Source: Terriglobia bacterium | Lineage (GTDB): Bacteria; Acidobacteriota; Terriglobia; 20CM-2-55-15 | Direction: 5' to 3' | Assembly (NCBI GenBank): GCA_965198225.1 | Contig: CBDAOY010000008.1 | Span: 1,234,070 to 1,298,069, forward strand | Length of the DNA stretch: 64,000 nt | In this document: positions 3 through 16,987 of the stretch, piece by piece | How positions within the stretch are numbered: position 1 is the first letter of the stretch | How the letters are laid out: each line of letters starts with the position of its first letter | Made by a program: the position numbers and the translations under genes | Notes under the pieces: generated by a model | Told to the model about the DNA's origin: nothing | Seen by the model: only the letters and a program-made list of their open reading frames with translations | Database searches by the model: none

Positions 3-407
3 GGCATCAATTCCGGTTTCATGGTTCCGCAGTACACGGCCGCGGCACTCGTGTCGGAAAACAAGATCCTCTGCCATCCGGCAAGCGTCGATTCAATTCC
101 GACGAGCCTCGGCCAGGAGGACCACGTCAGCATGGGGAGCATCAGCGCCGTCAAACTTCTGGATGTCTACCACAATGTCGAAACGGTCCTGAGCATCGAA
201 CTCTTCACCGCCGCCCAGGCGCTGGAATACCGGAAGCCGCTCCGACCCGGGAAAGGGGTGGAACTCGCGCATGACTTCGTTCGCTCTGTGGTGCCGCACA
301 CCGAAGTGGATCGCCGATTCGGCGACGACCTCGCACAGTGTCGGAAGCTCCTGGCAGAAACATCCCTCCTCGACGCCGTTGGCCGAGAGTTCGGAAGCCT
401 CCACTGA
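3..407 (+). CDS. hutH: Histidine ammonia-lyase, C-terminal part (runs in from window start)
   Basis: GINSGFM..QYTAAALVSENK..HPASVDSIPTS..QEDHVSMG motifs; stop overlaps hutI start (TGATG). Confidence 0.93.
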   Translation, partial: GINSGFMVPQYTAAALVSENKILCHPASVDSIPTSLGQEDHVSMGSISAVKLLDVYHNVETVLSIELFTAAQALEYRKPLRPGKGVELAHDFVRSVVPHTEVDRRFGDDLAQCRKLLAETSLLDAVGREFGSLH

Positions 408-1657
408 TGCCGGTCATCCGGAACGTCGGCGTTCTCGCCACCTGCCGTCGGGATGGCCCTCAGGACGAGCTTCACTCGATCCGGGACGCGGCAATGGCCT
501 GGACCGACGACAGTATCCAGTGGGTTGGCGGCGATAGAGACCTTCCTACCCGTTTCGTCGATTGGAAAACGTGGCGCCTGCCTGCAAGCCTCGTCATCCC
601 GGGCCTGGTCGACTGTCACACACATCTGGCTTTCGGAGGCTCGAGAGCCGACGAATTCGAAGCGCGCTCGCGCGGAACCAGCTACCTCGACATCGCTCGC
701 GCCGGTGGTGGCATTCGTCGAACGGTCGGACAGACGTGTGACAGCAGTTCCGAGGAGCTTTTCGATCGCTGCCTGAGGTTCCTGTCGGAGATGGGATCGC
801 TCGGGGTAACGACGGTGGAATGCAAGAGCGGGTACGGGCTGAGCTGCGAAGACGAACTCAAACTGCTGGAGGTCTACCGCAGACTCGACGAGAGGCAACC
901 ACTCCGAGTGATCTCTACGTTCCTCGGCGCCCACACCCTACCTCTCGAGTACGAACAAGACCGAGTCGCTTACGTGGATCTCGTGCGGGAACAAATGATT
1001 CCGACGGTCGCCCAAGGCAACCTGGCTCGATTCTGCGATGTCTTCGTCGAAGACTCCGCCTTCACGGTCGCAGAAGCGCGGGCAATCTTCCAGACAGCGG
1101 CTGAACATGGCCTCCGCCCGCGGCTTCACGCCGACCAATTGAGTGATGGTGGCGGGGCCGCCCTGGCTGCCGAGGTCGGTGCGGCTTCGGCGGATCACCT
1201 CGAGCACGCGTCCGACGCGGGAGTCGCTGCACTCTCGCGGGCCGGCGTGGTCGCCGTCAGCCTGCCTCTCGCCTCGCTCTACCTGCGGCAGCCTCCCCTC
1301 GAAGCGCGACGGCTGATCGATGCCGGAGTAGCGGTCGCTGTTGCGACGGATTTCAACCCTGGATCCGCGCCGAGCTTCCACCTCCCCCTTGCGATGACGC
1401 TGGCCTGCACGACACAGGGAATGACGCCGGGCGAAGCGCTCAAAGGAGCGACGCTGATCGCGGCCCGCTCCCTGGACCTCGAGGAAAAGGTGGGATCGCT
1501 CGAGGTAGGCAAAGCTGCCGATTTCGCCGTGATCGATGCGCCGGACGTCAATCACTGGCTGTGCCATTTCAGGGCGAATGCCTGCGAGGCGACCTTTGCC
1601 GGCGGCCGTCTGATTCACGGAAGCGAGAACATGGACGAGGGAATCGCCGACGGCTGA
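407..1657 (+). CDS. hutI: Imidazolonepropionase
   Basis: PGLVDCHTHL, GGGI, ECKSGYGL, HADQL, SADHLE, ATDFNPGS motifs; start set at ATG 407, coupled to hutH stop. Confidence 0.95.
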   Translation: MPVIRNVGVLATCRRDGPQDELHSIRDAAMAWTDDSIQWVGGDRDLPTRFVDWKTWRLPASLVIPGLVDCHTHLAFGGSRADEFEARSRGTSYLDIARAGGGIRRTVGQTCDSSSEELFDRCLRFLSEMGSLGVTTVECKSGYGLSCEDELKLLEVYRRLDERQPLRVISTFLGAHTLPLEYEQDRVAYVDLVREQMIPTVAQGNLARFCDVFVEDSAFTVAEARAIFQTAAEHGLRPRLHADQLSDGGGAALAAEVGAASADHLEHASDAGVAALSRAGVVAVSLPLASLYLRQPPLEARRLIDAGVAVAVATDFNPGSAPSFHLPLAMTLACTTQGMTPGEALKGATLIAARSLDLEEKVGSLEVGKAADFAVIDAPDVNHWLCHFRANACEATFAGGRLIHGSENMDEGIADG

Positions 1658-2763
1658 ACCCGGCGCAACCAGAGGTTGAAGATCTCGCCGGCCTCCGGCT
1701 CGATCACCCTCAGGAGCGCAGATCCGGATTCCATGAAATCCACAACCATGAATCCGGTATGCAGGTGAGCAAACAGCGTGTCCTCCCCATGGCTGACCGG
1801 ACTGGTCTTCGCCGCGGAGCCGCTGATCAGCACATAGTCGACGAGTTCCCCCTCCAGCACCTGCAGGCTGTGTTCATGCCCCGCCGCGAAAAGCAGGAGC
1901 CCTTCACCCACCGGGCGTCGAGAGAAAGCGCTATTGATGTCATCGACCATGCGGCGGTAGGCCGAGGCGTTGAAGTCCTGATCACGCAGCGGCAACTTTC
2001 GGGAGAGGGCGATCACGGTGCCGATGATGGGTGGGAGCAGATGATCCTTCCAGTCGGAAAAACCGGAATGCCGGCCGTACCCGCCCAGTGGATGGTGGGC
2101 GGCAACGACAACGTCGAGGTCGGTGTCGAGCAGTTCGACGAGACGGTCGACGACGGCCTCGCGGTTCGGTTGCGGGCATTCGCTGGTCGGCTTCTCGCCT
2201 TTCTGGAGCCACCACTGGGTGTCGAGTGCGATGATCCGCACACCCTGGAGGAGGTCGAGTAAGGCGGGTCCCGGACAACCGTTTTTCGGGAGGAAGTTGT
2301 CCATCCCCGGCATGTGCTGGTTGACGTACCGCGCCTGGGCGACGACGGCGTCGTAGCCCTCGTCTTCGTCACCACTGGCCCAGTCATGGTTTCCAGGAAG
2401 AAACACTCCACGAGCGCCGCTTTCGGTGACCGCTTCGATCTGGGGCAGCAGGCGGGCGTCGGCCTCCCCTCGACGCCGCTCGGTCATCCCTTCCGGATAC
2501 ATGTTGTCGCCCAGGTAGAGAACGATCGTTTTCTCCGGCGTGCGGGATGCCCACTCCGACACTTCGTCGAGGACGGGAGTGTCCGTTTCGCCCGCGTCCC
2601 CAACGAGTAGAATTCGATTTCGGATCGAATCCGTCGGGGAAGCCGGTCGAGTCTCAGCGGGAGACAGTGCGCCCGGGCGGAAGTACGGGTTCGTGTGGCT
2701 GCAGGCGGCCCCCGGGATGAAGCACGCCAGGACAATTACACGAAGACGCGTGCGTTTACCCAT
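1615..2763 (-). CDS. Exported (probable lipoprotein) calcineurin-like metallophosphoesterase
   Basis: GDAG, LGDNMYP, PGNHDW, AHHP, GHEHSLQ motifs; signal peptide ending GAAC. Confidence 0.85.
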   Translation of the reverse strand: MGKRTRLRVIVLACFIPGAACSHTNPYFRPGALSPAETRPASPTDSIRNRILLVGDAGETDTPVLDEVSEWASRTPEKTIVLYLGDNMYPEGMTERRRGEADARLLPQIEAVTESGARGVFLPGNHDWASGDEDEGYDAVVAQARYVNQHMPGMDNFLPKNGCPGPALLDLLQGVRIIALDTQWWLQKGEKPTSECPQPNREAVVDRLVELLDTDLDVVVAAHHPLGGYGRHSGFSDWKDHLLPPIIGTVIALSRKLPLRDQDFNASAYRRMVDDINSAFSRRPVGEGLLLFAAGHEHSLQVLEGELVDYVLISGSAAKTSPVSHGEDTLFAHLHTGFMVVDFMESGSALLRVIEPEAGEIFNLWLRRVQPSAIPSSMFSLP

Positions 2764-2985
2764 ACCTGGAGTGTAGTGATAAGATCGGCGCGCGGTCAAA
2801 CGCCCAACTTTACAGTCCGGGGGCAGGTTGGGTATTCTCGGACGCGGAGAGGCATCGGGATGACACAGATCCTCTACTGTCCTGTCGCAGGCTTTCGTTG
2901 ACGGGTATTTCTTGGGTTTTCCGGACTATCGTTCACACTCTTAGTTCAGATACGGGTTAGGGCCAGAGATCCGCATAATCTCATC

Positions 2986-4312
2986 ATGAATCTCGGAACG
3001 CAGGATTGGCACGCCAGGGACGGAGGAGCGATCCAGCAGGGGCAGACCACGCAGGCACAACTCAGGCGACGGTTGGTCGGGTCCGGCAGGCTCAGAGTGT
3101 TCGTTTTGTCGGTGCTACTGATTCTCCTGGGGATTCCCGCGATGCCTCCCCTGTATGCCCAGTCAACCCGCGCGGAAAAGATTCAGGCCGAACGCCGGGA
3201 CAAGGCAGCCACATCCCAACCAGAGCGCGTTTCGAAAACCGAAGGTCGCCTGAACGCGATCAAAGACAAGAAGCTGTTGGAACGTCTCGCTTTCGGATAC
3301 CACGGGCTGACCGTGGTGCTTGGCGGCCTGGGGACCGGACAGGGCTTCGCGTTGGGACCACAGTACCTCCGATCGGATCTGGGAGACGGCAGTCCTGATC
3401 CGGAGTTCAGCCCGCTATGCCTTCGCAGAGGCGTATCTCGCGGATGCGGTGCTGTCGATGCCACACCTGGCTAACGACAGGCTGTTTCTGGACTTCGCCG
3501 GTCAGCACCGGAACTACCCGCGCATCGACTACTACGGTCCGGGTATGGATTCGAAAGAGTCTGATCGGACACACTTCCGTCTCGAAGACACGGCGCTCGA
3601 CGCAACGGTCGGCGTACGGCCCGTCGGGCCGCTGAGTCTGGGCGCGACGGTTGGCGCCCTGTTCGTCAACACCGGTCCCGGGAACCTCGGCTCGTCCAGG
3701 CCGCGCACCGAGGACGTCTTCTCTCCCGCAGCAATCCCGGGACTCGCCGATCAGACCAACTTTCTGAGAGGGGCCGCCTTCATCCAGTTGGACTACCGGG
3801 ATAATCCGGGAGGCCCCCGAACGGGCGGTAATTACGTGGCCCGGTACACCTACTTCGATGATCGCGAACTCGAGCGTCACGATTTTCGGCGCCTGGACGT
3901 CGAGCTACAACAGTACGTTCCCTTCTTCAACGGGCGACGGGTGATTGCCCTCCGTGCCCGTACGATCCTCACGTATCCGAACGGCGATGCCAGCGTGCCA
4001 TTCTACATGCAGACGGTGCTCGGAGGCTCGGACGACCTGAGAGGCTTCCGTCCATATCGTTTCTACGGCGATCATCAGATCCTTTTGAACGCCGAATACC
4101 GCTGGGAGTCGTTTACAGGTCTTGAGATGGCGGCTTTTTTTGATGCCGGGAAGGTCGTTCCAGAGCGTTCCGACATCAACTTCCGGGATCTTGAAACTTC
4201 GGCGGGCTTCGGCTTTCGTTTCAACGTGCGTAACAACACGTTCATACGCATCGACACCGGATTCAGCCGGGAGGGCTTCTTAGTATGGTTCAAGTTCGCG
4301 AATCCTTTTTGA
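2986..4312 (+). CDS. BamA/TamA (Omp85) family outer-membrane beta-barrel protein, frameshifted near 3391
   Basis: ORF 2986..3474 (signal peptide, N-terminus) continues in ORF 3320..4312 with LGGSDDLRGF..RF, NAEYRW, FFDAGKV, GFGFRF and terminal Phe; true start may lie downstream of 2986. Confidence 0.8.
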
Positions 4313-4325
4313 GAGGAATCATCGG

Positions 4326-5927
4326 ATGACAGGAATCCTGATAGCGCTCCTGGTGGGAGGCGGGTTGCTAACACAGAAGTTCTATCCGGACGATCCCCTG
4401 ACGAGGGAGCCGGAGCCGATGCGGGTCGACGACGCTGCGTTCCGCAAGCTCAACGACCAGTACGACCTCTTCATGCACACGCTCGGCAGTCCCGGAGAGC
4501 AACAACCGGAGAACGTGGAACCGATTCGTGCGTTGTCCATCAACACGCTGGACGAGGTTCCGGACAACCCGTGGTTCACGAACCGCATCGGATCACGAGA
4601 CATGTCGATCGAGGAGGTTCGGCGGGGCCCCGGCAGCGACCAACCTCCTGATACCACGGGGCCCTGGAAGATCGTCGCGGGCAAGACCGAAGGTGTCACC
4701 CCGGGGTTCCGAATCGAGGACGTCCGTGGGGAGCAGTATCTGTTGAAGTTCGATCCCGAGACCAACCCTGAAATGGCTACGGGAGCGGATGTAATCGGAT
4801 CGGTGCTGTTTCACGCGCTCGGTTACAACGTCCCCGAGAATTACCTGGTGACCTTCGATCGGGACCAACTCGTCATCGGCGAGGATGCGACGATACCCGT
4901 TCGGCTGGGGCAGGCACGGCCGATCTCGAGCATGGACGTCAACACCGCCCTCGCACGGGTGCCGCGTAGCGAAGACGGCGGGATTCGGGCCATTGCCAGC
5001 CGACTGCTGCCGGGAAAGATCCTCGGCGAGTTTCGTTATCACGCCACACGAGCAGATGATCCCAATGACGTCGTCGCCCACGAGCATCGGCGGGAACTCC
5101 GAGGTCTCTTCGTTTTCTGCGCCTGGCTGAACCACAACGATTCCCGTTCGATCAACACGCTCGACTCACTCGTGGATGAAGGCGATCTGAAGTACGTGCG
5201 GCACTATCTGATCGATTTCGGAGCGACCCTGGGCAGCGCCAGCGTGGTCTCGAACACGGCACGAGACGGGAACGCATATTTCTTCGAGTTCGGACAGGCC
5301 CTGGCCCAACTCATCAGTCTGGGAGCCTATGTCCCGGCATGGGCGAGGGCGAAGTATCTCAAGTCGGACGCGATCGGCATGATCAACCACGAGGACTTCG
5401 ACCCGGAAAAGTGGAAGCCGAATTACTGGAACCCGGCTTTTTCCAACCGACTTCCAGACGACACTTTCTGGGCCGCCAGGAAGGTCATGGCGTTCAGCGA
5501 CGAACATATCCGGGCCGCCGTTGAGCAAGCCCGTTATTCCGACCCGGAGGACACGGCCGCTCTGACCGAGTACTTGATCGCGCGGAGGGACAAGATCGGG
5601 CAGGTCTATTTTGCTCGGGTGCTTCCCCTCGACGAGTTTCGTCTCTCGGATGGGCAACTGGAGTTCGAAGACCTGGCCGTTAAACACGGATTCGTCCCAA
5701 ACCGCGCCTACACGGTCGAATGGTTCCGGTTCAGCAATGAAACAGACACCCTCGAACGAATTGATGACGGAACCAGCTTTTCCATCCCGGATGAAGCGCG
5801 AGCCGCCTCACCGGGCTCGTATTTTGCTGCGACGATCCGCGGCGAATCCGGGGAGCAGAGTGTGGTTATCTACATGCGCACGGAAGGCGAGGGACATCGA
5901 ATAGTCGGCATCGAACGCACTTGGTAG
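4326..5927 (+). CDS. Exported hypothetical protein with atypical (HipA/PI3K-like) kinase motifs
   Basis: Signal peptide; GKTEGVTPG, YLLKFD..E, WLNHNDSRSIN, YLIDFG. Confidence 0.65.
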   Translation: MTGILIALLVGGGLLTQKFYPDDPLTREPEPMRVDDAAFRKLNDQYDLFMHTLGSPGEQQPENVEPIRALSINTLDEVPDNPWFTNRIGSRDMSIEEVRRGPGSDQPPDTTGPWKIVAGKTEGVTPGFRIEDVRGEQYLLKFDPETNPEMATGADVIGSVLFHALGYNVPENYLVTFDRDQLVIGEDATIPVRLGQARPISSMDVNTALARVPRSEDGGIRAIASRLLPGKILGEFRYHATRADDPNDVVAHEHRRELRGLFVFCAWLNHNDSRSINTLDSLVDEGDLKYVRHYLIDFGATLGSASVVSNTARDGNAYFFEFGQALAQLISLGAYVPAWARAKYLKSDAIGMINHEDFDPEKWKPNYWNPAFSNRLPDDTFWAARKVMAFSDEHIRAAVEQARYSDPEDTAALTEYLIARRDKIGQVYFARVLPLDEFRLSDGQLEFEDLAVKHGFVPNRAYTVEWFRFSNETDTLERIDDGTSFSIPDEARAASPGSYFAATIRGESGEQSVVIYMRTEGEGHRIVGIERTW

Positions 5928-6166: not shown

Positions 6167-7378
6167 CTAGCGCAGATTGAAGTTCACTTCGATATTCAAA
6201 GCGACGTCGACCGGGACGCCATTCCGCATTCCAGGTCTGAACTTCCACTCCTTCAGCGCCTTCATGGCGTTCTCGTCGAGGCCGAAGCCGAGGCTCCGGA
6301 CGACCCGAAGGATCTCCACACTGCCATCCTTGCGCACAATCGCTTCGAGGACGACGGTGCCCTGATACTGCGCTTTGCGGGCCTCCTCGGCGTAGATCGG
6401 ATCACGCTTGAACAGAATCGTCGGCGGAGTGATTCCCCCGCCAACACGGAAGACGCCACCACCGAAGCCTCCACCTTGTCCCTGGCCCAGGCCCGGTCCG
6501 CTGCCCATACCGACACCTCTGCCCTGGCCGGTTCCGATCCCGGCACCGGTGCCGGGACCCGAGGACGGTGGCGCGGGAATGCCTTCGGGATCGCCCAGGT
6601 TGAACAGGTCCACTGAGGGGAGCATGCTCGCCAGTTGCGGGGCCACGATGGTGGGCTCGGCCACGAGGAGCGGGTTGGAATTCGGGGGCGGTTCGGGCGT
6701 CGGGGGCACCAGTTGCCGGTCCGAGGCTCGGGGCGGTTGCCCGAGAGAGGGCGCGGTCAGCGTTTCTCGCCCCCCACCGCCGCCGCCGCCGGAAGTGTCA
6801 TCTTCCTCGGGCAGCAGGAGCAGGTCGGGTGGCAGGTAGAGGGGAATGAATGTCTCGGTCACCTGCACTGGGAATTCGGAGGAAGGGCTCCAGAATCCCG
6901 TAAAGACGAGCATGATCATGAAGGCGTGCGCGCCCCCGGACACGGCGACACGCTTCTTGACCTTCCACTCGGACCAGATCGGTTCGACCTCGACGGGCTC
7001 GGCGGTCGTTACAGCCGGTTGCGGATTCCTGATGTCGTCGAAGATCGCCCGGGTCTGGCGGTAGATCGAGAGAAACGGCAACTGGGTTTCGATCAAACCT
7101 TCCAGGGCTCGAGGATCCGCGTGTGCCGTGATCTTCGCTCGGGGAGTCGGATTGGCGGCCTCGGCGCGAAACTCCTGGATCTGTCTCCGCAAAGAGGCGA
7201 AAGACGTCGGACCCTCGACCAACTTGTCCAGGGCCTGCGGGTCCGGCTCGGCCGTGATCTTGGCCGGTGGTGGAGGATTCCTCCGTTCGTCCTCGAGCTC
7301 CCGGAGCTGCCGGACCAAGGAGAAGATCCATTTTTCATTAGCGACTTCTCTGTAGCTAAAGGGCTTCTGGTTGCGCAT
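6167..7378 (-). CDS. tonB: Energy transducer TonB with repeated N-terminal extension
   Basis: TM helix, Pro/Gly-rich linker, C-terminal PIYAEEARKAQYQGTVVLEAIV..GLDENA..WKFRPG..VNFNL. Confidence 0.85.
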   Translation of the reverse strand: MRNQKPFSYREVANEKWIFSLVRQLRELEDERRNPPPPAKITAEPDPQALDKLVEGPTSFASLRRQIQEFRAEAANPTPRAKITAHADPRALEGLIETQLPFLSIYRQTRAIFDDIRNPQPAVTTAEPVEVEPIWSEWKVKKRVAVSGGAHAFMIMLVFTGFWSPSSEFPVQVTETFIPLYLPPDLLLLPEEDDTSGGGGGGGRETLTAPSLGQPPRASDRQLVPPTPEPPPNSNPLLVAEPTIVAPQLASMLPSVDLFNLGDPEGIPAPPSSGPGTGAGIGTGQGRGVGMGSGPGLGQGQGGGFGGGVFRVGGGITPPTILFKRDPIYAEEARKAQYQGTVVLEAIVRKDGSVEILRVVRSLGFGLDENAMKALKEWKFRPGMRNGVPVDVALNIEVNFNLR

Positions 7379-7553
7379 GAGGTCCCTGTCTCCCGATTCG
7401 AATCCACGCCCGTAAGTAGGCGTTAAGTGTATAGACGGACGGGAGTTGGATACGTTTAGTGGAAAATTGATTCGTGAAAATGGACAAGTGAGGAGTGAAG
7501 AGTCGGAGGGAGGTGCCCGTCGGTTGATGCTGCGGTTTGACGAGCAGTCGAAG

Positions 7554-8888
7554 TCACGCAAGAATCCGCATGGATACCCGGCCGAACAGCGCATTCGATT
7601 GGTTCAAACCGGAAACGGCCCGTTTCACCACTTCTTCAGACCGGCCGAGCTGCTGCTGATTCTGCCTCATTTTCGAAAAAGCGGCGCGAAGCCCTTCGCG
7701 TGCCGGCACGACGAAGCCGGCGGCACCGCCACTCCGACCCAGACGGTCTCGCAACTCTGAAAAGATACCGTCTTTGCCATCGCGGCCACGGAGCAGCCCT
7801 TGCACATCTCGAAGGGAGGTCGCTAACGCCTTGTCCAGCTTCGACTTGTCCAAGGTCAACCGACCGGAGGCCGAACTGGAAATGCCGATGTCGGAGAGTT
7901 TCTTGTAGGTCCCGGTCGTGGTCGCTGAAACAGACCGTCGCACCTCGCGAATGGTGTTCCGGAGTTCGGAGCTGGCGGCGATGCGATCTCTGGAATCGCG
8001 CTTTGTCGAGTCTGACGAAAGTCGGGCGTAGTCCTGCTCCAGGGCGTTGAATTCATCGACGAAACGACCGACGGAACGGCCCGTCGAGCCCGCGTCGGAA
8101 GCCACGCTGATCGTCGCCGTGCCCTTGCCGACCAACGTCATCGATGTACCGGAGACGGCGTCGAGCACGGTGTTCGAAGTGCTGTTGAGCTGCTTGCCGT
8201 CCACCTTGATCTGGGCGTTCTGAGCGTTCTGGGTATTCCCGGAGACCGAACTCTGCCCGGTCGCGAATGCCAGCGCGGGCCCCCCGGAATTTGTCAGAGA
8301 GTTGTTGATCGTAAAGCCTTGGCCCTGTCCGGTCTCCCGGCTGGATATGACCAGCTTGTTGGAAACGGCATCGTTCGTGATCGAGGCCACGACCCCGGAG
8401 TTCTGGTTGTTGATCTGATCCTTGAGACTGGAAAGCGATGTTGCCGACCCCACGTTGATCGTTGTGGTCGTCCCACCGTTCACGGTGAACGAGATCGATC
8501 CGCCATCGGCCACGGTGTCGGTCGTGTTGGTGTAGCCTGTCGTAGACGTCGTGATCTGGCGTTTGGCCAGTTGGGTTACTTCCAGCGAAAACTCGCCCAG
8601 CGATGCCCCGGGCGAGGCCGAGACAGTCGCGACAGTGGTTGCGGACGAGGAGGCCTTGGCGCCTGCAAAGCTTGCCTTGCCGCTGAGCTCCCGCACGGGG
8701 CCGTGGAAGTTCTGGAGTCGATCGGAGACGGAGGAAAGCGCGGAGCTCTTTCCGAAGCGGGCCTGGAGATCGGCGGAGCTCTTTCCGAAGCGGGCCTGGA
8801 GATCCGGTTTGGATCCGGCCGTCCGGTCGAAATCGACAAACTTCACCGCGTCGAAGACGCTGTTGCCTGTGAAACTGATCGAAGCCAT
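7554..8888 (-). CDS. fliD: Flagellar filament cap (HAP2) FliD-like protein
   Basis: MASISFTG start, LEVTQLAK, LKDQIN, LVISSRETG, AQNAQIKVDG..STSNTV, FVDEFNAL, LSDIGI..G.LTLDKSKL. Confidence 0.75.
   Translation of the reverse strand: MASISFTGNSVFDAVKFVDFDRTAGSKPDLQARFGKSSADLQARFGKSSALSSVSDRLQNFHGPVRELSGKASFAGAKASSSATTVATVSASPGASLGEFSLEVTQLAKRQITTSTTGYTNTTDTVADGGSISFTVNGGTTTTINVGSATSLSSLKDQINNQNSGVVASITNDAVSNKLVISSRETGQGQGFTINNSLTNSGGPALAFATGQSSVSGNTQNAQNAQIKVDGKQLNSTSNTVLDAVSGTSMTLVGKGTATISVASDAGSTGRSVGRFVDEFNALEQDYARLSSDSTKRDSRDRIAASSELRNTIREVRRSVSATTTGTYKKLSDIGISSSASGRLTLDKSKLDKALATSLRDVQGLLRGRDGKDGIFSELRDRLGRSGGAAGFVVPAREGLRAAFSKMRQNQQQLGRSEEVVKRAVSGLNQSNALFGRVSMRILA
8740..8804. repeat. 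33-bp in-frame tandem duplication inside the fliD-like gene
   Basis: GCGGAGCTCTTTCCGAAGCGGGCCTGGAGATC twice (DLQARFGKSSA x2). Confidence 0.9.
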
Positions 8889-11316: not shown

Positions 11317-12768
11317 TCATTTCCGCCAGAACGCCGGCGTCATGATCACGATCACCGTGTAGAACTCGAGTCGGCCTGCGATCATGTCCCCGGCCAGGAC
11401 CCACTTGGCGAGCATCGGCAGGTGGGCGTAATTTTCCGTCGGACCGACCGAACCCAGGGCCGGACCGATGTTGAACATCGACGCGGCGACGGCGGCGATC
11501 GCGGTGAGCACGTCCACTCCCATGGCCGCCAGCATCAGGCACGACGCAAAGTTGACCACGAAAGCCAGGTAGACCAGGTTGAGGAGGCTCTGGATCGTCG
11601 ACTCGGAAATCACCTTCCCTCCCAGGCGAACCGCAAAGACGCCGCGGCGTTCGACCATCCTTTTGAATTCGCGATCGACGACCTTGGCCAGCAAGAGAAC
11701 CCTGGCAGTCTTCATGCCGCCCGCAGTCGATCCCGTGCATCCTCCCACGAACATCAATGTCAGCAGGATCAACTGTGGCAACGGATGCCACACCTCGAAA
11801 TTATCCGTTACGAAACCGGTCCCCGTGAGGATGGCGCCGACCTGGAACAAGGCACTGCGAACCGCCTCGAGCAGGCCATACCCGTCGTTCCAGACGAGAA
11901 TCCCCCCGATCAGGGTCGTCGTCGTCGCCGTGATCAACAGGTAATACCGCAACTCGACATCCTCAAAGAACCGGCGGGGGTTGCGCTCGACCCAGAGCCG
12001 ATAGTGTTGGACGAAGCTAATTCCGGCGAGGAGCATGAACACGATGATGATGAGCTCGATGAGCGGGCTGTTGAAGCCGGCGATGCTGTCGGTCCTTGTC
12101 GAGAAGCCACCGGTTCCGAGCGTCGAGAACGTGTGGCACAGGGCTTCAAACCCGGTCATCCCCGCCAGCCTCAGCGCGAAGAACTCCGCAACCGTCAACG
12201 ACGCGTAGATCTTCCACAACGAGAGGGCGGTCTCCGTGATTCGAGGCTTCAACCGCTCGGACTTGGCACCCGAGAACTCGGCGCGGTATAGCTGCATGCC
12301 GCCGTGTCCGACCAGGGGCAGGATCGCAATACCGAGAAGGACAATGCCCATTCCGCCCAGCCAGTGGGAAAAGCATCGCCAGAACTGCAATGCGTCTGGA
12401 AGCACCTCGACTTCGGGAAGGACCGTGGCACCAGTCGTCGAGAACCCGGACACCGCCTCGAAGAACGCGTCGGTGAATGTCGTGAAGTACGGCGACAGGT
12501 AGAACGGAAGGCTGCCGAACAGGCCGACGCTGACCCAGATTGAAACAACGAGCAGGAGGCCTTCCCGCTGGCTAAGCTCCCGACTCGGTCTCCGGAACAG
12601 GAACAGGGACAGGCTGCCGACCCCCAGCGTGATTACCGCGGAGTATGCCAGCGGTTCCAGGCCCCCGCTACCGACCGCCCACCCGTAAGCGAACGGGATG
12701 AGCATCGTGCCGCCAAGGGCCAGGAGGAACTGGCCTAGGACGTAGCCGATCAGCTGAAACTGGATCAA
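11317..12768 (-). CDS. trkH: Trk potassium uptake membrane protein
   Basis: FEAVSGFSTTGAT, WLGGMG, GTGGFS, GGCTGSTAGGMK, NIGP, GRLEF. Confidence 0.96.
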   Translation of the reverse strand: MIQFQLIGYVLGQFLLALGGTMLIPFAYGWAVGSGGLEPLAYSAVITLGVGSLSLFLFRRPSRELSQREGLLLVVSIWVSVGLFGSLPFYLSPYFTTFTDAFFEAVSGFSTTGATVLPEVEVLPDALQFWRCFSHWLGGMGIVLLGIAILPLVGHGGMQLYRAEFSGAKSERLKPRITETALSLWKIYASLTVAEFFALRLAGMTGFEALCHTFSTLGTGGFSTRTDSIAGFNSPLIELIIIVFMLLAGISFVQHYRLWVERNPRRFFEDVELRYYLLITATTTTLIGGILVWNDGYGLLEAVRSALFQVGAILTGTGFVTDNFEVWHPLPQLILLTLMFVGGCTGSTAGGMKTARVLLLAKVVDREFKRMVERRGVFAVRLGGKVISESTIQSLLNLVYLAFVVNFASCLMLAAMGVDVLTAIAAVAASMFNIGPALGSVGPTENYAHLPMLAKWVLAGDMIAGRLEFYTVIVIMTPAFWRK

Positions 12769-12779
12769 GGAGGATTCTC

Positions 12780-14135
12780 CTAAGCCAGAAAAACAGACTC
12801 CAGGTCTCGGACGGTACTCTCGAGCGCGAAGAAGATGACGCGATCGCCGGCTTCGATTATCGCGTTTCCCCGGGGTATGAGTACCTGCCCGTCGGGCCTG
12901 GCAATCGCCCCAACGATGGCGCCGCGCGGGAACCGCAGCTCGTTCAGCGGCCGCCCCACATACCTGGAACCCTTCGAGGCGAGCAGCTCGATCGCTTCAG
13001 CCTCTTCTTCGCCGAACGTGGTGACCGACAGGACGCGACCTTTCCGAACGAACTGTAGAATTCGGTCGACTGCTTCCAGACGGGGACTGACGGTCGTGTT
13101 GATCCCCAGGCGCTGGACCATCGGCAGATAACTCATCCGATTGATCAGAGCCACGACCTTCTTGACCCCAAGCCGACGCGCCAGCAGCGAGGCGATGATG
13201 TTGTCCTCGTCGTGATTCGTCAGGGCCAGAAACGCATCGACTCCCTCGACGTTCTCCTCCAGCAAGGTCGCCTGATCGGTGCCGTCGCCGTGGATGACGA
13301 TCGCCTTGTCCAGAATCGTCGATATCTTCTTGCAACGATCATGGTCGTTTTCGAACAGCTTCACCTGAACCCCGTGATCCTCGAGTATCTGGGCGACCTG
13401 GATGCCGATCTGTTTTCCTCCGACGACAAAAACACGCTCCAGCTCGTTGTGGGTCTCGATCCCCATGAACTCGAGCACCTCTTCCAGGTTGTCGCGCGTC
13501 GCCATCCCGTAGATATGGTCGCCCGGCTGCAAGGTCTCTGCTCCGTGGGGGATGATTACCTGCTGCCCCCTGAAGATCATCGCGATCAAAGAATTCCGCG
13601 GTGGACCGGCTTTCTCGAGCTCCCCCAGGGTCTTGCCGGCCAGCCAGCTGTCGAGCTCGACATTCATCCCGAAGAGTCGGGCCTCACCCCTCGCGAACTC
13701 CAGGATGTCGGAAACCCCCGGGTAGTTGACGACGCGCATGATCCGGTCGGAGACGTCGCTTTCCGGGTGGATGATCAAATCAATCTCCAAACCCGCCCGC
13801 TTCGTCAACCGTCGCCAGTGCTCCACCTCGTGGGTGCGCATCCTGGCAACCTTGATACTGGCCTTGGATTCGACCTGCGCGATGAGGCAGGCCAGAATAT
13901 TGACCCCGTCGGAGTCCGTCGCCGCAATGAGCATCTCGGTTTCGGCGAGGCCGGCACGACGAAGGGTCAGGACACTGGCAGCATTGCCCTGAATGATCTT
14001 CGCGTCCAGGGTGTCCTCGAGATGCTCGCACCGGGAGATGTCTTGCTCTACAAGGACGACTTCGTTGCCTTCTCGGATGAGGCGGCTCGCGATGAGGGCA
14101 GCGACGTCTCCGCCTCCGGCAATCAGAATTCGCAT
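12780..14135 (-). CDS. trkA: Trk potassium uptake NAD-binding protein
   Basis: Two RCK N/C repeats (MRILIAGGG, VVGGKQIG, IHGDGTD); directly upstream of trkH. Confidence 0.95.
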   Translation of the reverse strand: MRILIAGGGDVAALIASRLIREGNEVVLVEQDISRCEHLEDTLDAKIIQGNAASVLTLRRAGLAETEMLIAATDSDGVNILACLIAQVESKASIKVARMRTHEVEHWRRLTKRAGLEIDLIIHPESDVSDRIMRVVNYPGVSDILEFARGEARLFGMNVELDSWLAGKTLGELEKAGPPRNSLIAMIFRGQQVIIPHGAETLQPGDHIYGMATRDNLEEVLEFMGIETHNELERVFVVGGKQIGIQVAQILEDHGVQVKLFENDHDRCKKISTILDKAIVIHGDGTDQATLLEENVEGVDAFLALTNHDEDNIIASLLARRLGVKKVVALINRMSYLPMVQRLGINTTVSPRLEAVDRILQFVRKGRVLSVTTFGEEEAEAIELLASKGSRYVGRPLNELRFPRGAIVGAIARPDGQVLIPRGNAIIEAGDRVIFFALESTVRDLESVFLA

Positions 14136-14374
14136 CGTTATCGGTTACTCACGTCGCTGGACGGACGAGCAGGCCGCATCATACTGCGTTCGTTCCGAGT
14201 CTGTACACGCCAATCCTCGTCGTATTTCGGTTCGAGCCTGGGTGATCCGGACTGTTCCGCCCTTTCGTTTCAAGTATCTCACGCCCGCGACGAATCGTCA
14301 GACAGGACTCGCCCTGCGAGGACCCGACGGTGCTTGGCGCCACCGCAGCTCCAACCCGAAGATCGTCTTTGAGT

Positions 14375-14397
14375 TGGTACAGTGGTACACTGGTACA
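14375..14397 (+). promoter_or_regulatory. Three TGGTACA direct repeats (period 8), candidate operator
   Basis: TGGTACAgTGGTACAcTGGTACA directly before the GGAGG RBS of the 14412 gene. Confidence 0.55.
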
Positions 14398-14411
14398 AAG
14401 GAGGTGCGCCA

Positions 14412-14696
14412 ATGCCCAAGAAAGCCGGCAAGAAGCCCGGAGAACAAAGCTACAGGGTTATCCGCGTCCAGACGGGCGTCCGCATGGAAAAACGCCTGGT
14501 GAAGGTTCTCAAGGGTCTCGCCGAATACCTGGACATGACCATGGGGGACCTGCTGGAGGGCATCGTGCTTCATGCGTTTGATGGAAAACAACCCTTCAAG
14601 AAAGAAACCCTCGAGAAGGTCGCCGACCTGAAGCGGATCTACGGATTGGACCTGGACTCCAGTGCGAGTCACCGTATGAAGGAGGCCGAGCGATGA
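14412..14696 (+). CDS. Small ribbon-helix-helix-like protein
   Basis: RVQTGVRMEKRLVKVLKGLAEYLDMTMGDLLEGIV fits a beta-alpha-alpha pattern; good RBS. Confidence 0.6.
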   Translation: MPKKAGKKPGEQSYRVIRVQTGVRMEKRLVKVLKGLAEYLDMTMGDLLEGIVLHAFDGKQPFKKETLEKVADLKRIYGLDLDSSASHRMKEAER

Positions 14697-15118
14697 ATGC
14701 CCTCGCCGCCTACGAGCCGACCGCGGAAGAAGCGACTTTTGTCGGTCGTTTCGAGGATTGCTCCCTGCCCAACGCGGTTTTTCGTCACGTCGATCACGTG
14801 AGACTGACCTGGTTGTACCTGCGGATGTATCCGATCCTGGAAGCGCTGGACCGCGTCGTCGTCGGCCTGAAGCAATTCGCGACTTCCACTGGTCACTCCA
14901 ACCTCTACCACGAGACGATCACGTGGGCGTTCGTCATCATCGTCAACGAGCGCATCGAACGGTTTGGGAGGGATCACACGTGGCTGGAGTTCGAGGAACG
15001 CAACGCCGACTTGATCCGGGACGGCCGAGCGGTGCTTGGTGGGTTTTACTCTGCTGAAGTGATCGGGTCCGACCTTGCAAGACGCGTGTTCCTCATGCCC
15101 GATCACGCGTCCAATTGA
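14693..15118 (+). CDS. Conserved hypothetical protein
   Basis: ATGA overlap with upstream gene; FxHxDH, YHETIT, YS..PD motifs. Confidence 0.65.
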   Translation: MNALAAYEPTAEEATFVGRFEDCSLPNAVFRHVDHVRLTWLYLRMYPILEALDRVVVGLKQFATSTGHSNLYHETITWAFVIIVNERIERFGRDHTWLEFEERNADLIRDGRAVLGGFYSAEVIGSDLARRVFLMPDHASN

Positions 15119-15202
15119 TCAATCTCGCGACGGGTCGTCCGGATCGTGAACTCTGGGCGAAAAGTTGACTTTCTGGATCACCTGCGCCCTTATACTGCCC
15201 GC

Positions 15203-15985
15203 ATGAGACTTCAAGGAAAGGTCGCGCTTATTACGGGAGCCTCCCGCGGAATCGGACGGGCCACCGCTACTCTCTTCGGGCGGGAGGGTGCTTCCGTCAT
15301 CGTCAACTATGCCACCCGGGCAGACGCCGCGGAGGAGGTCGTCCAGACGATTCAGGACGGCGGTGCCGAGGCCGTCGCCGTCAAGGCCGATGTGTCGGAT
15401 CGGACCGATGTCGAGACCATGGTCGGCGAATCGATCGACCGGTTCGGCAGCATCGACATCCTCGTCAACAACGCGGGCATCCTGCTGCACGGCAATGTGA
15501 TGACGATGAACGAAGAAGAACTCGACCGCATGATCGCCGTAAACGTCAAAGGCATCGTCAACTGTGTCCAGGTCGTCGCGCCGAAGATGGCGGATCAAGG
15601 TCACGGAAAGATCGTCAACATCAGTTCCCTGGCGGCTCTCGGTACGGCCGTCGGTGGGACTACTCCCTACGCGCTGACGAAAGCGGCAGTGATATCTCTG
15701 ACGAAGCGAATGGCCTTCGAGCTGGGGCCGAAGGGCATCAATGTCAACGCGATCTGTCCGGGCTTCATCCAGACCGACATGCTGGCTTCGATCAGCGGCT
15801 CGGCTGAAGGCCTCGCCGACGCGCTGGCGAAACCCGCCGCCAAGGCCGCACTGGGCCGTGTGGGGCAACCGGAAGACATCGCCGGCAGCGCGCTGTTTCT
15901 CTCCAGCGAAGAATCCAGCTTTATCACCGGGCAGGTCCTGACCGTCGACGGCGGACGCATGGATTTCCTGACGCATTCGGCGTGA
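15203..15985 (+). CDS. SDR family oxidoreductase
   Basis: TGASRGIG, NNAG, YALTK, PGFIQT, VDGG. Confidence 0.93.
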   Translation: MRLQGKVALITGASRGIGRATATLFGREGASVIVNYATRADAAEEVVQTIQDGGAEAVAVKADVSDRTDVETMVGESIDRFGSIDILVNNAGILLHGNVMTMNEEELDRMIAVNVKGIVNCVQVVAPKMADQGHGKIVNISSLAALGTAVGGTTPYALTKAAVISLTKRMAFELGPKGINVNAICPGFIQTDMLASISGSAEGLADALAKPAAKAALGRVGQPEDIAGSALFLSSEESSFITGQVLTVDGGRMDFLTHSA

Positions 15986-15991
15986 GGGCAA

Positions 15992-16020
15992 GTGTAGGTG
16001 CGGTCTATGACCGCACATTC
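15992..16020. repeat. REP element (GTAG family)
   Basis: GTGTAGGTGCGGTCTATGACCGCACATTC; reverse complement at 48997-49025. Confidence 0.8.
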
Positions 16021-16792
16021 GCATCCTGATGTCGGAGAGACACGATGTAGCTGTCGTCGCTCGGATCGTAGATGACAGCATTGGCGTGAGCCCAGTTTCG
16101 CGTTCCGTTGTCTGCCTCCGGGTATGCGAAATTCCAACCCTCATCTAACGATCCGTATCCAAGACGGTATGGGTTGAGAATATCGATCAGCGAGTACCTC
16201 CTCGCTTCAGTCCCGTCCCTCGTGAACTCTAAAACGACATCTCCGATAACGTTAGCCGTTTCCCTTTCAGCTTGGGGATCAGTCTCGCTGGTCGGGTAGT
16301 TCTCGAGACGTCTCAATTCAGTACCCAGAGTGACGAAATTACCTGAAGGCATCTGAGAGAGTTCGTGATGAGGGTTCTCGATGTCTAGAGCCACACTCCC
16401 GGGCGCAGCATCACTTCTGTTCTTCGAATGCCACCTACGAACAACATTTCCGAGAAATTAGTTCTGAAGGCCAAGGGCTCCGACCAGGCGGCACGGTTTC
16501 CGTTACCGTCGACGACGCTCACTTCGACTGTGTAGTCCGCTCCCGGCGCCAGGCCAAGCAGGGAAAGCGAGTGGTTGCTGTCCATCTCGGCGAACTCGAC
16601 GACCCGTTCCGCGCCGCCGGTCCGGATGTCAAGGATGATGGTGGACGGTTCGTCGGTAACAACTTCGACCAGGGCAGCCAGAGGTGTGGTCAGGTTGGGG
16701 TTCAGGCTGACGGTGGGAGAATCCACGAATTGAGGAGGCGAGGAATCCAGAACGCCGCAGCCCGCCGTTCCAGCAGGCATCAGGTTCCCCAT
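16020..16792 (-). pseudogene. Arylsulfate sulfotransferase (ASST)-like remnant
   Basis: N-terminal Ig-like part (NPNLTTPLAALV..H.L.LLGL.PG..Y.V) and propeller fragment (PHHEL, GDVVLEF, WAHANAV..SLRHQD) in two frames, with an internal deletion and 3' truncation. Confidence 0.7.
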
Positions 16793-16987
16793 GGCGGTTG
16801 GTAAAATGTGTCATGGCACATATCACCGGTGAAGACCGTTCCCAGCTTCTGCTTCTGCCCGATACTGTGGACGACTATGCCAGAAGAACGGCGATCACGA
16901 AATAGTGGACGTGGTGATTCACGTGCCTCCGGAGGCCGTACACGGACGCTTGGGTCACGCGATCGCCGGCGGACCAGCAGCCCGTGA

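Follow-up and report, generated by a model that had tools for sequence, protein, structure and literature searches.

We describe a conserved two-gene unit in which a gene for an Omp85-family outer-membrane barrel lacking recognizable POTRA domains is followed by one for an exported protein with an atypical kinase-like fold. A functional link between the two, proposed in an initial annotation of the DNA, is real: it is borne out by a gene-neighbourhood survey and by a predicted complex. A phosphoesterase is an optional accessory, and nucleotide transporter genes are a commoner one. Everything said here of what the module does is inferred computationally.

Organization of the locus

The window is the whole 64,000-nucleotide stretch of DNA that was analysed. 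The features considered are as follows (aa, amino acids; PE, phosphoesterase).

1615..2799, minus strand: metallophosphoesterase (PE) gene; exported calcineurin-like protein, 394 aa; PF00149 (Metallophos) 24.2 bits against a cut-off of 21.5
2770..2838, unstranded: divergent intergenic region; one promoter-like site per strand
2986..3390, plus strand: Omp85 barrel gene, 5' part, frame 1; signal peptide, conserved N-terminal arm (TRAEKIQAERRDKAATSQP) and first strands
3391..3391, plus strand: barrel-gene frameshift site; one base at the position of a codon in homologues
3392..4312, plus strand: Omp85 barrel gene, 3' part, frame 2; lid-lock motifs LRGF (loop 6) and FFDAG (strand 13)
4326..5927, plus strand: exported atypical kinase-fold protein, 533 aa; no Pfam match; AF2 pLDDT 95.5
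4680..4748, plus strand: Gly-rich loop (residues 119-127) and strand-3 Lys141; conservation over 71 sequences
5049..5069, plus strand: R-x-D-D-P-N-D loop (residues 242-248); near-invariant; predicted docking site for the barrel arm
5130..5222, plus strand: catalytic-loop-like NHNDSRSIN (residues 269-277) and DFG (297-299); conservation over 71 sequences

The open reading frames, strands, gene order and 13-bp gap of the initial annotation were all found as given, the barrel stop codon ending at 4312 and the kinase-like ATG lying at 4326. The start of the PE gene is probably the ATG at 2763; the N-terminus of the protein resembles a signal or lipoprotein peptide (MGKRTRLRVIVLACFIPGAAC) and this, with the PF00149 match, agrees with its description as an exported calcineurin-like enzyme encoded divergently from the barrel. 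The two promoter-like sites in the divergent region compare with a shuffle mean of 1.4, a number not above chance, and only their position is suggestive.

The barrel gene is split over two frames (2986-3390 and 3392-4312), a frameshift that the initial annotation overlooked; open reading frame 3320-4312 on the plus strand is part of the barrel, and the signal peptide and arm lie in 2986-3390. The letters at the site read 'GGC A GTC', with a single base where intact homologues carry one full codon. Contigs assembled from public runs of three studies carry identical letters, and no indel occurs at the site in four public runs; X1 and X2 span the entire stretch and X4 spans 3362-3502, all with 0 differences from the window. 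The window's own assembly may derive from X1 or X2. Because of the frameshift, the window copy of the barrel may be disabled. An intact paralogous barrel/kinase-like pair is present on another contig of the same genome, and the 3' part of the window barrel is 33% identical to its 453-aa barrel (E 8e-49).

The barrel and its link to the kinase-like gene

Assignment of the barrel to the Omp85 family stands, with open reading frame 3320-4312 matching PF01103 at E 7.2e-12 (45.9 bits, cut-off 24); the match to NF047779 (Omp85_fam) has an E of 6.3e-27, yet reaches only 95 bits against a cut-off of 200. The remark that POTRA domains are not obvious also holds, as Pfam scans of the two barrel pieces (E<=0.1) and of the intact paralogue (E<=0.01) gave no POTRA match. 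Only a helical arm of some 45 residues stands ahead of the barrel, which is therefore placed, there being no POTRA, in the 'noNterm' class of Omp85 proteins. No DUF5982-type match was reported in Pfam scans of the window barrel and its paralogue, the presence of a DUF5982 model in the library being unconfirmed. The lid-lock motifs, defined in PMC11358297 as (L/M)RG(W/Y) for loop 6 and FxDxG for strand 13, occur in the 3320-4312 translation as DDLRGFRPY, in which F replaces W/Y, and AAFFDAGKV. Among 26 barrels, R320, F352, D354 and G356 are invariant or almost so, and the N-terminal arm carries the motif TRAExIExxRxxKAAxLxP, with R30 in 25, R38 in 21, K41 (as K or R) in all 26 and P47 in 24.

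The barrel gene lies directly upstream of the kinase-like gene at 55 of 60 genome loci, and directly downstream at two more; the upstream arrangement recurs at 65 of 66 metagenome loci and at 16 of 16 further loci that were picked by hand. Close members of the barrel subfamily number exactly two in the window's genome, each adjoining one of the two kinase-like genes found there.

A complex was predicted for the orthologous pair from locus L034, whose kinase-like protein is 46% identical to that of the window. The three ipSAE values were 0.79, 0.78 and 0.81, against 0.00 for the best of three controls. Of 80 solved complexes, 58 attain this mark, as do 2 of 110 mismatched pairs; these counts hold only roughly here because the complex was modelled from our own alignments. 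The runs share at least 95% of their contacts, and partner pLDDT is at least 87. The predicted interface joins the barrel arm (residues 27-72) and segments 282-286 and 341-351, which the order of strands suggests are periplasmic turns, to residues 20-50, 240-247 and 309-341 of the kinase-like protein. Docking is predicted to occur mainly at the arm, and the contacts of lowest error are between DDPND-loop positions and barrel residues 37-42.

The kinase-like protein

The 533-aa protein consists of a signal peptide (1-17), an N-terminal wrap (18-110), a kinase-like core (approximately 100-435) and an Ig-like β-sandwich (430-533). The ordered kinase motifs recognized in the initial annotation are present in the 4326-5927 translation, namely GKTEGVTPG (119-127), YLLKF (138-142), DSRSIN (272-277) and DFG (297-299), and the HipA/PI3K-like fold proposed from them is confirmed by structure prediction and fold searching: the AF2 model (pLDDT 95.5), Foldseek and VIA-align all indicate a bilobal kinase fold of the HipA/PI3K/Fam20 group. 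The secreted kinase CtkA is the top structural match. It should be noted that the likeness of fold rests on 9-15% sequence identity, and that a fold shared at this level does not show function. Kinase-fold proteins may catalyse other reactions, or none. By sequence, no Pfam family was matched at E<=0.1, hence no HipA, Fam20C, CotH or PI3/4-kinase profile, and no PDB chain fell under E 0.44. In the protein atlas only unnamed clusters lie at 0.98; clusters that bear Fam20C or HipA come at 0.80-0.81.

Residues of catalytic type are conserved among 71 sequences. In the Gly-rich loop, K120 is found in 60 sequences and G123 and G127 in 61 each; the strand-3 lysine, K141, is found in 63, D272 in 59 (with E in five and N in four), N277 in 68, D297 in 69 and G299 in 54. 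The Gly-rich loop, K141, N277 and D297 are retained in a 12-sequence lipoprotein clade too. The DDPND loop is more conserved than the putative catalytic Asp (59/71) and Lys (63/71): D245 and D248 are present in all 71 sequences and R242 and N247 in 70, an invariance explained by the predicted interface falling there. The proposed export is likewise supported, since N-termini across the 71 sequences are of Sec type or carry a lipobox; many members are predicted lipoproteins. The family is very large, with more than 7622 matching proteins and, counted at 50% identity, 3424 matching clusters; in a sample of 401 genomes of the phylum, 80 contain it.

Accessory genes

The PE subfamily of the window adjoins the pair at seven of 139 loci (five without near-duplicates), and the enzyme is best regarded as an optional accessory. 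It recurs in two positions. In the window, L098 and L099/L100 it is transcribed divergently, immediately upstream of the barrel, and in L105/L107 it comes directly after the kinase-like gene; L040 is a further locus where it adjoins a pair. A second Metallophos subfamily occupies the same two positions at nine loci. PE subfamily and kinase-like gene occur together in 4 of 14 PE-bearing genomes, against a background of 80 in 401, and at seven of eight PE loci from other genomes there is no barrel or kinase-like gene within approximately 7 kb. The PE has no paralogue in the window's genome, and no sequence relative in the PDB at E<=1.

TLC/NTT transporter genes, which the initial annotation overlooked, are a commoner third partner, found at 52 of 139 loci. 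A transporter gene comes immediately after the kinase-like gene in 25 of the 65 metagenome cases that could be assessed and in 6 of 59 genome cases, and all 16 transporter open reading frames examined pass the PF03219 cut-off; no NTT gene is adjacent at 50 of 59 genome loci, nor in this window. Characterized NTTs import nucleotides, according to the available text of Major, Embley & Williams (2017; PMC5381601). The NTT-HEAT(-cNBD) architectures of that study adjoin the pair at related loci: L040 has NTT-HEAT with a cNBD gene after it, L071 has an NTT-HEAT-cNBD fusion and L060 has NTT-HEAT; the text available gives them no function and draws no link to Omp85 or kinase-like genes. Phosphatase-type genes of three kinds (two metallophosphoesterase subfamilies and PAP2) are found at 27 of 139 loci.

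Relationship to known systems

The closest precedent is the 'Metallo' Omp85 subfamily of Heinz & Lithgow (2014; PMC4104836), consisting of PF00149-Omp85 fusions, to which the initial annotation had pointed. The best long relatives of the window PE are such fusions, of approximately 1210 aa (E 6.6e-49), and PF01103 is present in 96 of the 120 relatives listed; over 327 aa the window PE is 35% identical to the homologous N-terminal domain of fusion P0271. The middle domain of the 'Metallo' fusions has the same atypical kinase sub-fold, and all three parts therefore occur in one polypeptide, whereas in the window they are three separate genes, with PE and barrel divergently transcribed. The initial proposal that the locus is a split three-part version stands in so far as the fusions hold all three parts; it is qualified in that the PE is optional (7/139) and no significant sequence homology joins the kinase-like domains. 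Comparison of the 533-aa family with the fusion middle domain gave E 0.0086 and 0.018 with a probability below 5% (hhalign), and best E values of 0.014 and 0.081, not significant (hmmsearch). The 'Metallo' barrels resemble noNterm barrels according to the available text of PMC4104836, and matched weakly in our analysis (E 2.8e-7). PF00149 is labelled a metalloprotease in that study, and 'kinase' does not appear in its main text.

The noNterm Omp85 proteins of Leptospira and Cytophagales (PMC11358297) are likewise POTRA-less barrels of the 16-strand type with lid-lock motifs and, like the module barrels, have conserved neighbouring genes for exported proteins or lipoproteins. Those neighbours encode DUF1566 or Big/integrin lipoproteins and no kinase-fold protein, and 'kinase' is not found in the text available. 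From CtkA, HipA/HipT, CotH, Fam20C, PI4KIIα, actin-fragmin kinase and MavQ, to which Pfam and PDB searches gave no sequence match, the 533-aa protein differs in its 90-residue N-terminal wrap, DDPND loop, C-terminal β-sandwich and Omp85 partner. TpsB/TpsA and the type Vd protein PlpD also couple or fuse an Omp85-family barrel to an enzyme; in contrast to these, the module has no POTRA and no TPS domain, and its folded partner is predicted at the periplasmic face. Membership of the two-partner secretion family is not supported, as PF03865 (ShlB/FhaC) reached only E 0.036 and 14 bits against 22.7, and the partner has no Pfam family. Each part has a known fold; no description of their combination was found in full-text literature searching.

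Possible functions of the module

We propose that the kinase-like protein would remain in the periplasm, docked on its own barrel from the periplasmic side, with its acidic DDPND loop and N-terminal segment binding the barrel's basic N-terminal arm and two turns read as periplasmic. The docked protein may correspond to the enzymatic periplasmic module that Bacteroidota fuse into the metallophosphoesterase/kinase-like/Omp85 protein of approximately 1210 aa. It would act as a nucleotide-dependent phosphotransferase on a protein, lipid or glycan that is exported or belongs to the envelope. In many lineages the adjacent TLC/NTT-type inner-membrane transporters would supply the nucleotide, and adjacent phosphatases (two metallophosphoesterase subfamilies and PAP2) would reverse the reaction or tidy up after it; the window PE sits at one of the two stereotyped accessory positions. 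Taken as a whole, we consider this proposal somewhat better than evenly probable. A bolder form, which we offer tentatively and think is probably not correct in full, is an extracytoplasmic phosphorylation system of diderms in which an NTT-type carrier exports ATP, the kinase docked at the barrel mouth marks a lipid, glycan or protein during its insertion into or passage through the outer membrane, and metallophosphoesterases or PAP2 erase the mark, the Bacteroidota version being one polypeptide.

CtkA of H. pylori is a secreted kinase and PlpD has an Omp85-fused passenger, and by analogy the barrel could be a dedicated translocator, as in two-partner secretion, with the kinase-like protein, or its lipoprotein forms, a passenger acting at the surface or in the medium. 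An Omp85 gene beside its cargo recalls TpsB/TpsA operons, the top structural match is the secreted CtkA, many family members are lipoproteins, and the strong predicted contact could also be recognition ahead of translocation; the Leptospira noNterm paper floats the same idea for neighbouring lipoproteins in its available text (PMC11358297). We nevertheless think it unlikely. The barrel lacks POTRA, the domain with which TpsB and PlpD bind cargo; PF03865 (ShlB/FhaC) matches only at E 0.036; the partner has neither a TPS domain nor any Pfam family, and in the model it is docked, as a fully folded protein of 500 aa, on turns read as periplasmic; and linked inner-membrane nucleotide transporters fit a periplasmic enzyme better. 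Distinctly improbable, in our judgement, is a non-catalytic scaffold, in which a kinase-fold pseudoenzyme would replace POTRA in a specialized Omp85 insertase or translocase, with nucleotide as a regulator or not used. The invariant residues do lie at the predicted interface and not in the active site, the Lys or Asp is missing in 8-12 of 71 members, and noNterm barrels may still serve membrane-protein biogenesis, as Heinz & Lithgow suggest (PMC4104836, available text). However, N277 (68/71), D297 (69/71), the Gly-rich loop (60-61/71) and Lys141 (63/71) are conserved far above the expectation for a dead site, the lipoprotein clade included, and the repeated occurrence of nucleotide transporter genes and of three phosphatase types beside the pair points to phosphate chemistry.

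The role of the PE is a separate matter. Metallophos enzymes include periplasmic 5'-nucleotidases, and the PE might, instead of erasing a mark as the initial annotation proposed, scavenge nucleotides or phosphoesters in the periplasm (clearing ADP/AMP, harvesting phosphate), or be a mere neighbour in the window. Its adjacency at just seven of 139 loci, the PE loci of other genomes that mostly stand apart from the pair, and the lack of a PDB relative that might suggest a substrate are all consistent with this; its fusion to a kinase-fold domain and barrel in Bacteroidota, its recurrence in two stereotyped positions, and the second Metallophos subfamily in those positions at nine loci argue against it. 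We give this reading a minority chance, though an appreciable one.

Implications

In standard teaching the periplasm lacks ATP, and we know of no Omp85 barrel that works with a kinase. The unnamed and very large family described here combines a kinase fold, retained catalytic-type residues and export signals with an almost constant partner, a private POTRA-less barrel to which it is predicted to bind, and with frequent links to transporters and phosphatases. If the suggested chemistry is correct, it would provide the first functional context for NTT-HEAT transporters and for the 'Metallo' and 'noNterm' Omp85 subfamilies, and ATP-dependent reactions outside the bacterial cytoplasm would become directly testable. 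Were phosphorylation by exported ATP also to hold, the module would stand as the equivalent, in bacteria, of the Golgi Fam20 system, and the view of a periplasm without ATP-driven enzymology would be overturned.

The barrel and kinase-like gene pair

The genes considered here are as follows.

1615-2799 (-), phosphoesterase of 394 amino acids (PF00149 Metallophos, 24.2 bits against a cut-off of 21.5)
Ending at 4312 (+), Omp85-type barrel gene (PF01103, E 7.2e-12; NF047779, E 6.3e-27), in two parts:
2986-3390 (+), 5' part: signal peptide, N-terminal arm and first strands
3392-4312 (+), 3' part: remainder of the barrel
4326-5927 (+), kinase-like ORF of 533 amino acids, starting 13 bases past the barrel end

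The initial annotation had described these ORFs, a POTRA-less Omp85 barrel, the 13-bp gap and kinase-type motifs, and all are present: a profile scan of the window barrel finds no POTRA family at E≤0.1, and the motifs of the kinase-like protein are GKTEGVTPG (residues 119-127), YLLKF (138-142), DSRSIN (272-277) and DFG (297-299). The phosphoesterase, described as exported, calcineurin-like and divergent, likewise has a PF00149 match above the cut-off and an N-terminus resembling a signal or lipoprotein peptide. The division of the barrel gene between two frames was overlooked.

The window genome contains a second kinase-like copy (43% identity) on another contig, preceded by an intact 453-residue barrel that is 33% identical to the window barrel (E 8e-49); a search of the genome with this 453-residue protein returned only these two close members and one weak match (E 1.9e-4). 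Other loci were surveyed using our own HMMs for the barrel, the kinase-like protein, the transporter described below and the phosphoesterase. The genome set comprises 59 loci with 62 kinase-like genes, of which 60 have enough upstream sequence; 55 of these are immediately preceded by a barrel and two more immediately followed by one, the exceptions being L008, L072 (second copy) and L077. In the metagenome set, retrieved by means of an alignment of lipoprotein-type members (80 loci, 83 kinase-like genes), a barrel is directly upstream in 65 of 66 cases. A further 16 loci, hand-picked and therefore biased, all have an upstream barrel, each an intact ORF of 411-504 residues. The 145 kinase-like genes form 139 clusters at 90% identity, so there is little redundancy, and stop and start codons frequently adjoin or overlap. 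The conserved unit is thus the barrel plus the kinase-like gene. Open frames of approximately 1000 residues had suggested a single fused ORF; the two genes, however, are in different frames in 15 of 16 loci, the open frame in the sixteenth (L034), where the frame is shared, is only 523 residues, and the barrel is a separate intact ORF in all 16. At L074, L077 and L155 the kinase-like gene comes first, reversing the usual order, or two pairs adjoin; L164 and L121 have tandem pairs.

Several neighbouring features may be recorded. An amidohydrolase gene at 338-1657 (+) (PF01979, 1.5e-22; PF07969, 4.7e-20) overlaps the 3' end of the phosphoesterase gene by 43 bp at its own 3' end. Convergent with the kinase-like gene is 6167-7594 (-); its 475-residue product, with a TonB domain at the C-terminus (PF03544, E 2.6e-19) and an extended linker rich in Gly and Pro, is not conserved in related loci. 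The region 7554-8888 (-) is a Ser/Thr/Gly-rich ORF of 444 residues with an exact tandem repeat, DLQARFGKSSA, close to its N-terminus. A promoter and terminator scan gave a count not above chance. Of the words sampled from 2900-4400, a fraction of 0.13-0.17 occurs in four metatranscriptome runs (X12, X14-X16). Beside the paralogous pair of the same genome (L003, contig 6) are STAND NTPase genes at 12008-17399 of that locus, one of which is joined to a kinase domain of Hanks type (PF20702 with PF00069).

Fold, family and export of the kinase-like protein

The kinase-like protein matches no Pfam or NCBIfam family and has no sequence relative in the PDB (best E 0.44); PDB sequence searches with it and with the phosphoesterase gave nothing usable. 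The kinase fold, for which the initial annotation had proposed a structural check, is nevertheless borne out by the matches listed below.

Structural matches of the kinase-like protein (match score)
CtkA, 13.2 (rmsd 4.1, 231 residues aligned)
Fam20C, 13.1 and 12.3
PI4KII-alpha, 12.3
Actin-fragmin kinase, 11.7
CotH, 11.7
HipT, 10.9; HipA, 10.7
MavQ, 10.0

The family is large, with more than 7622 proteins at E≤1e-3 and 3424 matching cluster representatives at 50% identity; among the matches listed, 120 of 120 are without Pfam domains, and they are 'hypothetical' wherever named. Record names and atlas taxa place members in Acidobacteriota, Marinimicrobia and Myxococcota, and 80 of the 401 sampled genomes of the window's phylum carry the gene (a tally that includes the unpublished genome G049), or 68 of 371 of high quality. 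One protein, P0212, used alone as a query, found no relative in metagenomes. Throughout the family the N-terminus is either a lipobox or a Sec signal peptide that stops just short of a conserved K/R-F-Y-P-D-D-P, and the family is therefore exported. The strictly invariant residues, D245, D248, H252, R256 and R259, lie outside the catalytic-type motifs, in the block R-x-D-D-P-N-D-x3-H-E-x-R-R-E-L-R. Long members (685-1158 residues), considered as possible barrel fusions, have neither Pfam domains nor barrel similarity; three of them (P0130, P0143 and P0175, 969-1158 residues) carry an additional C-terminal region of 420-630 residues that is similar among the three.

The frameshift in the window barrel

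At the division between the two parts of the barrel gene the window reads GGC A GTC, with one base where intact homologues (...LADG-x-V/F-A/V-LRTSA...) hold a codon. The letters are identical, with no differences, in contigs of public sequencing runs from three studies; those from X1 and X2, either of which may have given rise to the assembly, span the whole 1.5 kb, and that from X4 spans 3362-3502. Since runs from three studies carry the same letters and no indel occurs at the site in the four runs compared, the frameshift is probably real in the DNA. One contig from X6 stops at 3391 and is uninformative. That both halves retain all the motifs of the family suggests a recent event, which may have disabled the window barrel. 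Programmed frameshifting at 3391 was considered, and no slippery run is seen there. The closest orthologous pair among genome contigs (L004, kinase-like gene 66% identical) also has a frameshifted barrel, at a different site (approximately 6990-7030) within a GGGG run; this looks like a long-read assembly error.

A predicted complex

Because the window barrel is broken, the complex was modelled on an orthologous pair with both genes intact, that of L034 in a genome of the window's class, where the kinase-like protein is 46% identical to that of the window and the barrel 52% identical to the window 3' part. Signal peptides were removed and each chain was given its own alignment. The ipSAE values were 0.79, 0.78 and 0.81, against 0.00 for the best of three controls; the runs share at least 95% of contacts, with partner pLDDT of at least 87. 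In calibration, scores this high were seen for 58 of 80 solved complexes and for 2 of 110 mismatched pairs, counts that are only rough because self-made alignments were used. No similar complex could have been memorised from sequence, given that the family has no PDB relative. The prediction supports, although it does not prove, binding of the kinase-like protein by the barrel.

On the barrel side the predicted interface comprises the N-terminal arm (27-72) and residues 282-286 and 341-351, which by their position flanking loop 6 are read as periplasmic turns T5 and T6; on the other side it comprises residues 20-50, 189-205, 240-247 and 309-341. The lowest-error pairs join barrel residues 38 and 41 to residues 244-247 of the L034 kinase-like protein, equivalent to P246-V249 in the window, within the invariant DDPND loop. 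The arm has the motif T-R-A-E-x-I-E-x-x-R-x-x-K-A-A-x-L-x-P; among 26 barrels R30 is conserved in 25, R38 in 21, K or R at position 41 in 26, and P47 in 24, and the window barrel retains the motif as TRAEKIQAERRDKAATSQP. The model gives a simple reason why the most conserved residues of the kinase-like protein are not catalytic ones: they would form the docking site.

The phosphoesterase and the Metallo fusions

The initial annotation had proposed that the phosphoesterase, barrel and kinase-like protein are a split three-part module, with Bacteroidetes fusions of phosphoesterase and Omp85 as the precedent. A tblastn search with the window phosphoesterase found it at none of 33 loci, and a first verdict that it is unlinked was revised after a search of long proteins, an operon in genome G010 and the HMM survey. 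The best relatives of the phosphoesterase are proteins of approximately 1210 residues (E values as low as 6.6e-49, with 30-36% identity across 75-95% of the query), mostly with Bacteroidota names and, among the matches listed, with a precomputed PF01103 in 96 of 120; fusions of this kind do exist. They correspond to the 'Metallo' Omp85 subfamily of Heinz & Lithgow (PMC4104836); in passages of that paper, PF00149 is termed a metalloprotease, noNterm barrels are said to resemble Metallo barrels, and the word 'kinase' is not used. The phosphoesterase occupies approximately residues 1-380 and the barrel 960-1215, and the unannotated region between, with a predicted kinase fold, has the motifs GGGxQT, DWDRHxDQW and PRDRDQAF. 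Homology of this middle domain to the 533-residue family is not significant by hhalign (E 0.0086 and 0.018; probability 4.7% and 2.6%), where only the Gly-loop/strand-3 region and a C-terminal xTDxxI...RRDxI helix align consistently, or by hmmsearch (best E 0.081 and 0.014). The two are therefore tied by architecture and fold, not by proven homology.

The subfamily of the window phosphoesterase (more than 300 bits to its own HMM) adjoins the pair in 7 of 139 loci: the window, L040, L098, and the near-duplicates L099/L100 and L105/L107. Those of L098 and L099/L100, 45% identical to the window protein, share its placement shortly before the barrel gene and its divergent orientation; at L105/L107 the gene begins 34 nt past the kinase-like gene. 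At L040 a tightly packed string on one strand contains barrel, kinase-like gene, NTT-HEAT, cNMP-binding gene, PAS histidine kinase, response regulator and phosphoesterase. A second Metallophos subfamily takes the same two positions in nine loci and PAP2 phosphatases occur in 11 of the 139, a phosphatase-type neighbour being present in 27. At the genome level the link is weak: 14 of 401 genomes have the subfamily, only four of them with the kinase-like gene, and of eight phosphoesterase loci taken from other genomes, seven lack a pair in the vicinity. We therefore class the phosphoesterase as an optional accessory and not as part of the core.

Nucleotide-transporter homologues and other neighbours

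A commoner third partner is a nucleotide-transporter homologue, matched in 52 of 139 loci. In 25 of 65 assessable metagenome cases, often with two copies in tandem, and in 6 of 59 genome cases, it immediately follows the kinase-like gene and shares its strand; anywhere in the locus, the figures are 41 of 65 and 9 of 59. All 16 transporter ORFs checked pass the curated cut-off for PF03219 (TLC ATP/ADP transporter), with 24-87 bits against 21. Passages of Major et al. (PMC5381601) describe the NTT-HEAT family as widespread in free-living bacteria and uncharacterized, and characterized NTTs as importers. The window itself contains no transporter homologue. Its genome has six PF03219 matches at four or five places on contigs 5, 7 and 8 (L088-L093), all distant from both pairs; none of 14 control genomes has any. 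That genome, at 6.4 Mb, is of free-living size, and two of the matches are in open frames of 925-1037 residues, the size of NTT-HEAT proteins. Raw counts of other neighbours in the 139 loci are 19 Hanks-type kinases, 16 response regulators, 14 histidine kinases, 12 instances of a protein of approximately 200 residues and 11 cNMP-binding proteins.

Possible functions

Full-text searches of the literature turned up no paper that connects Omp85 barrels to kinase-fold proteins or to NTTs; supplementary tables, such as those to PMC4104836 and PMC11358297, lay outside these searches and could list relevant neighbours or domains. The tight pairing and predicted docking would also suit a secretion system in which the kinase-like protein is the passenger, which we consider unlikely: the barrel lacks the POTRA domains of such systems, and the recurrent transporters make better sense for a periplasmic enzyme. 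The invariance of non-catalytic residues could indicate that the kinase-like protein is a non-catalytic substitute for POTRA; given the retained kinase-type motifs and the recurrent transporter and phosphatase genes, this appears improbable. For the phosphoesterase alone, a role as nucleotide scavenger, or as mere neighbour, is a doubtful but not negligible alternative, in keeping with its solitary loci and less so with the Metallo fusions.

We lean, with some reserve, towards the kinase-like protein being a periplasmic, barrel-docked, nucleotide-dependent transferase with optional partners for ATP supply and phosphatase activity. Docked on the barrel in the periplasm, it would carry out nucleotide-dependent transfer; phosphatases would be optional partners, and adjacent NTT-type carriers, where present, would supply ATP. 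The transporter linkage bears directly on the identity of the phosphoryl donor, a question raised by the initial annotation, and the simplest reading is that the transporters would deliver nucleotide to the periplasm, although characterized NTTs import. As to the acceptor, structural neighbours include both protein kinases (CtkA, HipA, CotH, Fam20C) and lipid kinases (PI4KII-alpha, MavQ), and the Fam20 family includes a glycan kinase; the PAP2 neighbours are a hint that lipid phosphates may be involved.
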